Under the pieces are notes generated by a model, which was given only the letters and a program-made list of their open reading frames with translations, did not search any database and was not told the DNA's origin. Made by a program: the position numbers and the translations under genes. A DNA stretch of 54,893 bases from a virus (lineage: Duplodnaviria > Caudoviricetes): positions 1 to 54,893 of IMG/VR virus record IMGVR_UViG_3300037225_000166; one strand, 5' to 3'. This document shows, one piece after another, positions 24,336 to 25,511 of this stretch. How positions within the stretch are numbered: position 1 is the first letter of the stretch; each line of letters begins with the position of its first letter.

Positions 24336-24455
24336 TTAGTGCGCTTCGTGTAAACGCTAACTTTATAAGTGTGTTATCCTCGATCCCATTCGGGTTAATC
24401 AGGATGAAAGGAGAATGATTTTTCAATATTTAATGAACGTATAAATTACAAAATT

Positions 24456-24677
24456 ATGTTAAAGAGAATTATTAGTTATGTTGTTTTTTGCTTATTAGTA
24501 CTTCCTTACGGAATATATCTTTTCATAAAAGATGAGATATTTATTATTAAACTCAAAAAATCAGACGATTCATCCGTTAAGCGAGATGAGAATAAATGCG
24601 AATGTATACAAATACACAGGACTGAATTTCGAAATAGAATTGAAACCTGTACCTTCTGTAACAAACCTCTAAATTAA
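24456..24677 (+). CDS. Cassette ORF: small TM plus Cys-motif protein
   Basis: N-terminal TM; CEC...CTFC. Confidence 0.5.
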   Translation: MLKRIISYVVFCLLVLPYGIYLFIKDEIFIIKLKKSDDSSVKRDENKCECIQIHRTEFRNRIETCTFCNKPLN

Positions 24678-24703
24678 GCATTTATGAACACGAAGCGGAT
24701 TAA

Positions 24704-24832
24704 CCCGAACGGTTACAGCCTTATTTAGTGCGGGCTTAATAGTACTAACTTACATTTAAAGACAAAAGTTTATGGAAAGCACAAAAGTTGAAAACAGCAC
24801 AAACCCCGCATTGAATAAGGCTGATGTTATAA
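24704..24832 (-). repeat. attC-like hairpin 2
   Basis: CAGCCTTATTTAGTGCGGG / CCCGCATTGAATAAGGCTG, then GTTATAA at 24826. Confidence 0.75.
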
Positions 24833-24990
24833 GAAGGCCGTTTGATGCAGAAATTGACAACGGGAGAATTATGATTTATACGAGCGAGTGGGATGAATTT
24901 GGAGAATTGAAGTGGACTGCGAATATAATATCACCTGAAAGATTTAAGGAGGTTGTAAAGAACTACGAGGCTCTTACGGCTTTCTTATAA
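24772..24990 (+). CDS. Cassette ORF starting inside hairpin 2 and ending at the junction TAA
   Basis: The stop codon is the TAA of TTATAAC at 24985-24991. Confidence 0.55.
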   Translation: MESTKVENSTNPALNKADVIRRPFDAEIDNGRIMIYTSEWDEFGELKWTANIISPERFKEVVKNYEALTAFL

Positions 24991-25393
24991 CGGCCTTCGG
25001 GTAAGAGCAGGTTTGTGTTACGTTTTTAATGAATTTTATATGGATAAAAAATTGGAACAATTTTACTTTAACTGATTAAATAGAACGAAAATGAAAGAAT
25101 TAACAGATCAATTTGAAATTGAAAAATACAAAGAAGAATTAGACGATCATAGAAAAATAGAACAGATGAAAAACAAGGACTATGATTATGACCACAAAGG
25201 GAATATTGAATATTGTTCATGTGGCAGACCGTTAAATTCTCATGGATGGTGTTTCAGATGTGATGGCTAATGCCTAACAATTTTGAAAAAAATTGGGTGC
25301 GGTGGGAAAATTCTTTAAAATAAGTAAAACAAAACTGATGTTAAGTTGCGATACTTTGAGTAACCTCAAACTTGCTTTTACCCGATGTTACAG
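24985..25393 (-). repeat. attC-like hairpin 3 with a gene in its loop
   Basis: TCGGGTAAGAGCAGGTTTG / CAAACTTGCTTTTACCCGA, then GTTACAG at 25387. Confidence 0.65.
25091..25270 (+). CDS. Small zinc-finger protein (59 aa, not in the ORF track)
   Basis: CSCG...CFRC; A-rich leader before the ATG. Confidence 0.5.
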   Translation: MKELTDQFEIEKYKEELDDHRKIEQMKNKDYDYDHKGNIEYCSCGRPLNSHGWCFRCDG

Positions 25394-25511
25394 CCTGCAC
25401 CCATCACGTGATAGGGGTAAAATCGCAACTTATAGCGGTGGCTTACCCGAAGGCCGTTACAGTGCAATAGTGTGAAAGGAGAATGATTTTTTAACTTATA
25501 AAAACTAAAAT

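Follow-up and report, generated by a model that had tools for sequence, protein, structure and literature searches.

The window analysed here is the complete IMG/VR virus record IMGVR_UViG_3300037225_000166, a tailed-phage genome of 54,893 bases that is rated 100% complete, has a G+C content of 31-39%, and carries on its + strand every open reading frame (ORF) of at least 90 amino acids (aa) that overlaps no longer + strand frame (ORF listing, whole window). A 7.7-kb accessory island, rich in repeated modules, separates a Mu F-like minor head gene (23479-24105) from a PBECR2 nuclease gene (31798-32190); it contains orphan ORFs of 59-107 aa, a YopX protein, an N6/N4 methylase and a C5 methylase. 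Two units of this island, called units 1 and 2, each contain a segment (X1 and X2) that is antisense to the end of its own unit joined to its start. The best reading of these segments, which we hold to be moderately probable, is that the island encodes stem-closed, bistable gene modules in the phage transcript.

The complementarity itself is exact. X1 (24375-24400) is the reverse complement of 24698-24709 followed by 24235-24248 at 26 of 26 positions, and X2 (25442-25468) is that of 25802-25813 followed by 24991-25005 at 27 of 27; a 19-mer is identical at 24405-24423 and 25473-25491, and GAAGCGGATT is present at 24692 and 25795, at the ends of the two units. These features had been pointed out in an earlier note on the sequence, and a script check confirmed them. 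At full extent, the arms pair 24233-24248 with 24375-24390 (16 bp) and 24389-24400 with 24698-24709 (12 bp) in unit 1, and 24988-25005 with 25442-25459 (18 bp) and 25455-25468 with 25802-25815 (14 bp) in unit 2, leaving 126, 297, 436 and 333 nucleotides (nt) between the arms, which span the unit rather than its end. Within the segment the two arms overlap by 2 nt in unit 1 and by 5 nt in unit 2, where TAACG stands at both ends; because of these overlaps a crossover point is ambiguous, and the position AA|N at which it had been placed is not fixed by the sequence.

Such repeats are far more frequent than simulated genomes predict. Perfect inverted repeats of at least 16 nt within 1.5 kb number 3 against a mean of 0.03, and those of at least 14 nt number 7 against a mean of 0.83 (30 Markov simulations). 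Further, abutting repeat pairs whose joined internal stretch is at least 24 nt occur 4 times, where 200 simulations gave 0.19 on average and never more than 2, although the total of abutting pairs with arms of at least 10 nt is not unusual (8 versus 5.3 in simulations). The complementarity of the two segments is far above chance, and chance is excluded as its origin. Neither X1 nor X2 has a further target anywhere in the genome.

The arrangement of the arms accounts for the antisense relation. Each segment is the reverse complement of 'end + start' because a stem formed by the start and its complement directly precedes a stem formed by the complement of the end and the end itself, the two being adjacent and non-crossing. 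A joined end-start molecule such as a circle is not required for this, and a tandem copy also contains the joined sequence. Across 24233-25815 the abutting helices form a chain that holds 5 of the whole window's 8 links (Table 1). One abutment (24814-24835) falls inside ORF 24772-24990, away from any scaffold; therefore, the property is not tied to the conserved scaffold.

These results bear directly on the model proposed in the earlier note, in which integron-like cassettes excise as DNA circles whose junction is recognised by the segment. It would do so by guiding, as RNA, a recombinase that acts in trans, or by folding as single-stranded DNA. The model gains support from the perfection of the segments over 26-27 nt, from the 5-nt direct repeat TAACG that bounds unit 2, from a paralog of the unit 2 downstream sequence that starts at TAACG on the stop codon of ORF 27050-27277 and resembles an unoccupied site, and from the 8-nt flanks of unit 1, which are mutually inverted repeats. 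Against it, the geometry on which the circle was based follows from two adjacent stems and recurs without the scaffold inside an ORF, the unit 1 flank repeats are simply the third helix of the same junction, neither segment has another genomic target, and the scaffold was not found in a second phage or genome. Moreover, the complete genome has no match to a tyrosine recombinase (PF00589; a control search matched 14 of 14 genomes), a serine recombinase (PF00239), an IS110 recombinase (PF01548) or the Y1 HUH transposase of the IS200/IS605 type (PF01797). The integron likeness fails with the absence of an encoded integrase and with the distribution of GTTRRRY, which occurs 96 times in the window (110 expected from shuffles) and is missing from all four unit boundaries. 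Altogether, we consider the excised-circle model quite improbable.

The strand on which the helices deviate from Watson-Crick pairing points to RNA. All gapless helices scoring at least 11 in 24100-26000 were collected with G·T and A·C equally penalised (n = 12), and their non-Watson-Crick positions comprise 9 G·U on the + strand, 0 A·C and 8 others, where base composition leads one to expect G·U and A·C at about 1.2:1 (binomial p = 0.004). This excess indicates folding of the transcribed + strand, since double-stranded DNA sites would have no such asymmetry. It also speaks against the segment as a guide, as do the lack of an IS110 or Y1 enzyme and the negligible predicted pairing of the unit 1 segment at full length (below). 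The same bias in neighbouring helices argues against the inverted-repeat pairs being inversion sites of invertible DNA segments. Perfect 12-18 bp inverted repeats around 126-436 bp segments are what inversion sites would look like; however, every pair differs in sequence, leaving no single invertase site, no serine or tyrosine recombinase is encoded, and inversion would turn the ORFs against uniform + strand transcription, so that this explanation is extremely unlikely.

Fold predictions indicate that each unit can adopt two states. Unit 1 with its flanks folds at z = -7.5, and its leader alone at z = -5.6. Both units contain a second, imperfect double-antisense copy that leads to mutually exclusive alternative helices. 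In unit 1, 24315-24351 pairs with 24243-24254 and 24688-24710, thereby competing with X1 for both of its partners. For the complete unit 1, pair probabilities are 0.94-1.00 in the competing fold and 0.000 for the reported helices, and forcing either fold gives -173.7 kcal/mol for the competing and -162.2 kcal/mol for the reported one, a difference of 11.5 kcal/mol. When the leader is folded alone, which corresponds to a transcript that has not yet reached the 3′ end, 15 of the 16 pairs of the reported start helix are present in the minimum free energy (MFE) structure. Unit 2 is predicted to be mainly in the reported fold (pair probabilities 0.88 and 0.98), with the alternative 24997-25015/25367-25385 just 1.1 kcal/mol worse. 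The Shine-Dalgarno (SD)-like element lies 4-5 nt outside the helix and inside neither of the mutually exclusive helices.

Both registers of unit 1 are three-way junctions that have the outer helix 24227-24234/24713-24720 in common, and where the three helices come together 0, 0 and 3 nucleotides are left unpaired. This tight junction, with the unit ends side by side on one continuous perfect strand, is what an RNA splint would need, in which a cut-and-join reaction frees a circular ORF-bearing RNA and the flanks are religated. No Rnl2-type RNA ligase (PF09414), RtcB (PF01139) or known ribozyme was found in the genome, the unit 2 flanks do not pair with each other, and unit 1 at equilibrium favours the other register, all of which make the splint very unlikely. 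A broader version, in which each unit is released as a circle of RNA (with lower likelihood, of DNA) and the segment holds its ends in register, is also quite improbable. If it were true, the unit 1 junction geometry, in which the flanks are tied together by a helix of their own, would produce a small circular ORF-bearing molecule from a double-stranded DNA phage, and the strict perfection of the helices would reflect a splint or guide requirement. A reverse transcriptase (PF00078) is likewise not encoded in the genome.

A third, unrelated gene of the island has helices at the same positions. The C5-methylase gene (30114-31178) is enclosed by two nested helices whose arms are 1.1 kb apart: an inner helix, 30085-30101/31153-31169, with 17 perfect bp (pair probability 0.61) and an outer helix, 30040-30055/31208-31223, with 16 bp including 1 G·U (pair probability 0.99). 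In this module, as in the first two, 1-5 nt separate the inner 5′ arm from the SD-like element downstream of it, and the 3′ arm comes after a GAAGCG motif.

We propose that the island is transcribed on the + strand and that its RNA would fold into a string of stem-closed domains. In three modules (ORF 24456-24677, ORF 25512-25796 and C5 methylase 30114-31178), a perfect 12-17-bp helix would close the cistron by pairing the few nucleotides that directly precede the SD-like element with the sequence past the gene-end GAAGCG. Units 1 and 2 would have a further perfect helix, of 16-18 bp, which closes an upstream leader domain and abuts the first without a spacer; the strand common to both helices is therefore antisense to 'end + start', which is the reported segment. 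The older, G·U-containing double-antisense copy would offer mutually exclusive helices and hence two RNA states, which in unit 1 may be the two registers of the three-way junction. The predicted pair probabilities for the enclosure of the three cistrons are 0.61-0.99, with full-length unit 1 closed by the alternative 24329-24351/24688-24710. The sequence comparison supports a pairing that is maintained and acts in cis. From the predicted folds we infer that the helices could form in vivo, where they would serve mRNA processing and stability, like the long-range stalks around rRNAs, and/or translation control of the enclosed cistron.

Several observations weigh against stem-closed modules. The four reported helices are entirely Watson-Crick (0 of 60 pairs deviating), in contrast to 10 of 103 pairs in five imperfect helices (24243-24268, 24329-24351, 24716-24734, 24826-24841 and 24997-25015; Fisher p = 0.014), and such perfection is not obviously expected of slowly evolving RNA helices; it could reflect recent templated copying or a different constraint, and it keeps the templated-copying, splint and guide readings alive. 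The G·U bias is absent outside 24100-26000 (2 G·U, 1 A·C and 12 others), where the helices are mostly A+T-rich and probably due to chance, making that count uninformative, and a folded single-stranded DNA of the + strand would give the same G·T bias. The modules with the same leader at 25811 and 27275 have no convincing closing helix, the candidates being only weak A+T-rich matches. Single helices of 12-18 bp are short for RNase III, whose substrates have about two turns of double-stranded RNA, and abutting helices would reach 26-28 bp only if stacked. Further, the covariation-like evidence consists only of paralogs within one genome, and searches of GenBank phages, IMG/VR, JGI metagenome contigs and GTDB genomes yielded no relative that carries the region.

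The perfect arms also suggest recent copying in another explanation, namely that a module with an ORF between inverted repeats underwent tandem duplication or circular permutation and was later cut at the repeat, the split complementarity being a historical by-product without present function. A tandem copy or permutation yields exactly this pattern, each unit has two antisense copies that differ mainly by a 5-8-nt insertion, and repeated modules are abundant in the island. However, the two-helix, two-state design has been kept in units whose arms have only a short common core, the C5-methylase gene has closing helices at the same positions, and the wobble deviations of the older helices are G·U only, indicating selection on pairing. 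We regard such a historical by-product as unlikely.

Table 1. Positions of the helices, antisense segments, ORFs and abutting links in the accessory island (window coordinates; fold features are predicted).
Feature	Position	Strand	Description
Outer helix of unit 1, 5′ arm	24227-24234	+	pairs with 24713-24720; pair probability 0.98; in MFE structure; third arm of the three-way junction
S1, start of unit 1	24233-24248	+	perfect 16 bp with 24375-24390; 15/16 pairs in leader-alone MFE structure; 3′ end (24243-24248) also in competing hairpin 24243-24268/24301-24326
Hairpin I1	24243-24326	+	26-bp arms, 1 G·U, 2 mismatches; pair probability 0.998; part of alternative (equilibrium) unit 1 fold
Degenerate first antisense copy, unit 1	24329-24351	+	pairs with 24688-24710; 23 bp, 1 G·U, 1 mismatch; rivals X1 for unit end; pair probability 0.94
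Conserved frame, unit 1	24352-24374	+	GTAAA, 4-bp stem, loop AACTTTATA; leader alignment
Conserved frame, unit 2 counterpart	~25419-25441	+	4-bp stem differs between units (by-eye comparison)
X1, 26 nt	24375-24400	+	3′ arm of S1 helix, then 5′ arm of helix closing ORF 24456-24677
19-mer, copy 1	24405-24423	+	SD-like AAGGAG and mini-ORF start
ORF, 73 aa	24456-24677	+	hydrophobic N-terminus, CxC...CxxC C-terminus; enclosed by 24389-24400/24698-24709
Unit 1 end	24688-24720	+	GAAGCGGATT, E1 (24698-24709), outer-helix 3′ arm (24713-24720)
Two abutting stem-closed domains	24716-24991	+	24716-24734/24805-24823 (19 bp, 2 G·U) and 24826-24841/24976-24991 (16 bp, 1 G·U); pair probabilities 0.99
S2, start of unit 2	24988-25015	+	overlaps stop codon of ORF 24772-24990; 24988-25005 pairs with X2, 18 bp perfect
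S2, alternative pairing	24997-25015/25367-25385	+	19 bp, 2 G·U
ORF, 59 aa	25091-25270	+	CxC...CxxC C-terminus; within S2-X2 domain
Degenerate first antisense copy, unit 2	25367-25395	+	alternative helix -277.1 versus X2 helix -278.2 kcal/mol
X2, 27 nt	25442-25468	+	3′ arm of S2 helix, 5-nt overlap with 5′ arm closing ORF 25512-25796
19-mer, copy 2	25473-25491	+	identical to 24405-24423
ORF, 94 aa	25512-25796	+	enclosed by helix 25455-25468/25802-25815
Unit 2 end	25795-25815	+	GAAGCGGATT, E2 (25802-25815); TAACG 25811-25815 repeats 24988-24992
C5-methylase 5′ arms	30040-30055, 30085-30101	+	nested; second directly upstream of SD 30103-30109
C5-methylase 3′ arms	31153-31169, 31208-31223	+	follow GAAGCG motif at 31143
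Link	24243-24254/24315-24326 then 24329-24338/24701-24710		alternative unit 1 pair
Link	24233-24248/24375-24390 then 24389-24400/24698-24709		reported unit 1 pair
Link	24716-24725/24814-24823 then 24826-24835/24982-24991		abutment inside coding sequence
Link	24826-24835/24982-24991 then 24988-25005/25442-25459		
Link	24988-25005/25442-25459 then 25455-25468/25802-25815		reported unit 2 pair

Units 1 and 2 have in common the leader frame, the 19-mer, a block of about 40 nt inside their ORFs and GAAGCGGATT, and their arms differ yet stay fully complementary; judged by these features, they are diverged paralogs. The earlier note had described a common frame around unrelated variable segments, of which the frame holds, being kept by the paralogous units, and the unrelatedness does not, as X1 and X2 have a common core of 9-10 nt (TTCGGGT-type) in opposite orientation. 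Paralogy at the protein level was also considered for ORF 24456 and ORF 25512 and rejected: BLASTP found nothing, and only the DNA block of about 40 nt is alike. The product of ORF 24456-24677 has no Pfam or PHROG match, and the 94-aa protein of ORF 25512-25796 has one homolog in 5.8 billion proteins (48% identity). By eye, ORFs 24456-24677, 25091-25270 and 26489-26812 end in a similar CxC...CxxC, followed in two of them by xPL(N/K), which suggests a family of small zinc-ribbon proteins.

The 19-mer has its AAGGAG 30-40 nt upstream of the ORF start codons, and its 3′ part resembles the SD-proximal part of the leader repeated at 25811, 27275 and 30031. An 18-mer from the scaffold, suggested as a probe for further copies, is a generic SD-like string: its 10 other sites in IMG/VR are all ordinary SD regions, and none of these 10 has flanks that are complementary over 9 nt or more. 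By eye, the ATG within the 19-mer opens mini-ORFs at 24415-24444 and 25483-25494, which have 9 and 3 codons, both begin M-I-F, and stop 12 and 18 nt short of the main ORFs. A split ribosome-binding-site hairpin between the SD-like element and the start codon was rejected, its folds being weak (z of -0.2 to +0.8).

The repeated leader itself is about 85-100 nt long and occurs in three copies (25811-25917, 27275-27373 and 30031-30113), of which the second and third are 87% and 71% identical to the first; each starts with TAACG and ends with an SD-like element before a gene. TRTAACG and GAAGCG recur at module borders. GAAGCG occurs 17 times on the + strand versus 2 on the - strand of the window, and 8 of the + strand copies are in the island, 6 of them within about 35 nt of an ORF stop; it is often followed by a G-run (24692-31148) and may be a 3′-end signal. 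A role of TRTAACG as a promoter -10 element found no support in a sigma-70 scan. Across 23400-31900, promoter-like sites number 35 versus 37.8 in shuffles, and terminator-like sites 5 versus 4.2, with 0 of 5 on the + strand. Rfam 15 has no match at gathering score in the region; with E<=10 as the limit, the top match is to RT-12 (- strand), with 19.5 bits versus a gathering score of 44.2.

Other structured regions were found by a folding z-score scan of 188 windows covering 1-19050 and 22801-32250. The lowest value (z = -9.6) belongs to the 300 nt at 28051-28350. A strongly structured non-coding element is present in two copies that are 66.5% alike, one downstream of the YopX gene (28004-28213) and one downstream of the C5-methylase gene (31135-31344); it has no Rfam match, and in its 3′ part it is similar to the unit 1 and unit 2 ends. 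Strongly negative values outside the island were obtained at 11851-12300, which covers the gap before ORF 12230, and at 16201-16500 (-6.1, -4.3 and -5.4).

Elsewhere in the window, a permuted (two-piece) tmRNA-like gene lies at 3829-4288, where Rfam tmRNA_permuted scores 47.4 bits at 3890-4023, ARAGORN likewise calls a permuted tmRNA with a tag peptide, and a perfect 14-bp inverted repeat (3560-3573/4639-4652) flanks the gene. Bases 1-99 reappear exactly at 54682-54780, after which the sequence diverges; the record is classed as linear without end repeats, and this 99-base repeat may represent either an imperfect terminal repeat or a domain that occurs repeatedly in the genes at the ends. PBECR2 is a Barnase/EndoU/RelE-like nuclease, and its gene and the Mu F-like head gene are usually neighbours or fused; the island, which separates them here, may therefore be an insertion.

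Searches for related loci used several probes. The Mu F-like protein has no relatives among viral or metagenome contigs, and blastn found no relative among GenBank phages. The portal protein retrieved 3 loci (41-51% identity), all without the region, and the terminase retrieved 2 loci in metagenomes, one of them a 2.4-kb fragment and one at 33% identity. A pattern combining the scaffold with the SD-like element is present in at least 116 IMG/VR stretches; among the matches listed, 3 have GTAAA upstream, and the one of these that was read (L095) is coding sequence. A longer scaffold pattern matched 6 stretches in GTDB genomes and a T-element pattern gave 13 matches, all rejected as chance, and the repeated-leader pattern had 0 matches. 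The stretch or part of it is contained in 20 of the 22 listed public sequencing runs, 13 of which contain at least half of its sequence words; 3 of these 13 may be its source. The runs containing it come from 17 studies, all labelled peat or permafrost metagenome, and 6 are RNA on record; nothing is drawn from these runs on habitat or expression.

If the predicted fold is real, accessory genes would be packaged as self-contained RNA modules in which the 5′ leader is paired with the 3′ end and the helices abut and have two registers. To our knowledge, and with no literature search aimed at it, mRNAs of double-stranded DNA phages have not been described as having individual protein-coding cistrons closed 5′ to 3′. 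Such closure could explain how acquired 'moron' genes bring their own stability, processing or translation control, and would provide natural, compact insulator parts. Further, an antisense copy of a circle junction can arise from two adjacent stems, which calls for caution in scans for guide-like elements.

Several known systems resemble these modules in part. The IS110 bridge RNA is a structured, element-encoded RNA that is complementary to the element's own joined ends in the circular donor, lies in the non-coding end beside the DEDD recombinase gene (PF01548), and carries its guides in two internal loops (PMC11208160). Stretches complementary to an element's joined ends are thus found in both systems; in contrast, the bridge RNA loops as described there pair with target and donor DNA, where the phage has one continuous antisense of 26-27 nt (PMC11208160). 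The phage also has 0 matches to PF01548, and both pairing partners lie in cis on the same strand. The PeSL cassettes of T4-type phages are small orphan ORFs in a plastic region; they are flanked by directly repeated regulatory motifs, each made up of a promoter and a local terminator stem-loop, and recombination between these motifs produces ORF-bearing mini-circles detectable by inverse PCR (PMC2839356). Repeated motifs (TRTAACG, GAAGCG and the thrice-repeated leader) likewise flank the phage ORFs. Unlike the PeSLs so described, promoter and terminator scans here stay at shuffle level, and the long-range complementarity is inverted and unique to each unit.

Integron cassettes are small promoterless ORFs, each with a structured element and a circular intermediate, and attC, which has the core sites RYYYAAC/GTTRRRY, folds locally at the cassette 3′ end into an imperfect hairpin of roughly 60-140 nt. 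The phage units are alike in forming a series of small ORFs that each have a structured element, and in the idea of a circular intermediate. They differ in that there is no IntI and no R′′/R′ core site at 24235, 24709, 24991 or 25813, and in that their stems span the cassette whereas attC is a local hairpin at its end. Bistable leaders, such as attenuators and riboswitch expression platforms, couple overlapping, mutually exclusive helices of similar energies to a terminator or to SD sequestration. The helices of unit 2, 1.1 kcal/mol apart, resemble theirs; however, 23400-31900 has no + strand terminator-like site, the SD-like element is in neither helix, and the phage region matches no ligand-binding family.

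In bacterial rrn operons, long-range processing stalks flank 16S and 23S rRNA, and phage T7 has RNase III sites between its genes. As in the phage modules, the flanks pair over hundreds of nucleotides and enclose a unit, and each neighbour has its own stalk. In contrast to those stalks, the enclosed units here are small protein-coding cistrons of a phage accessory island, known from predicted folds, and their helices are perfect, 12-18 bp long, and abut without linkers in the presence of a competing second register.

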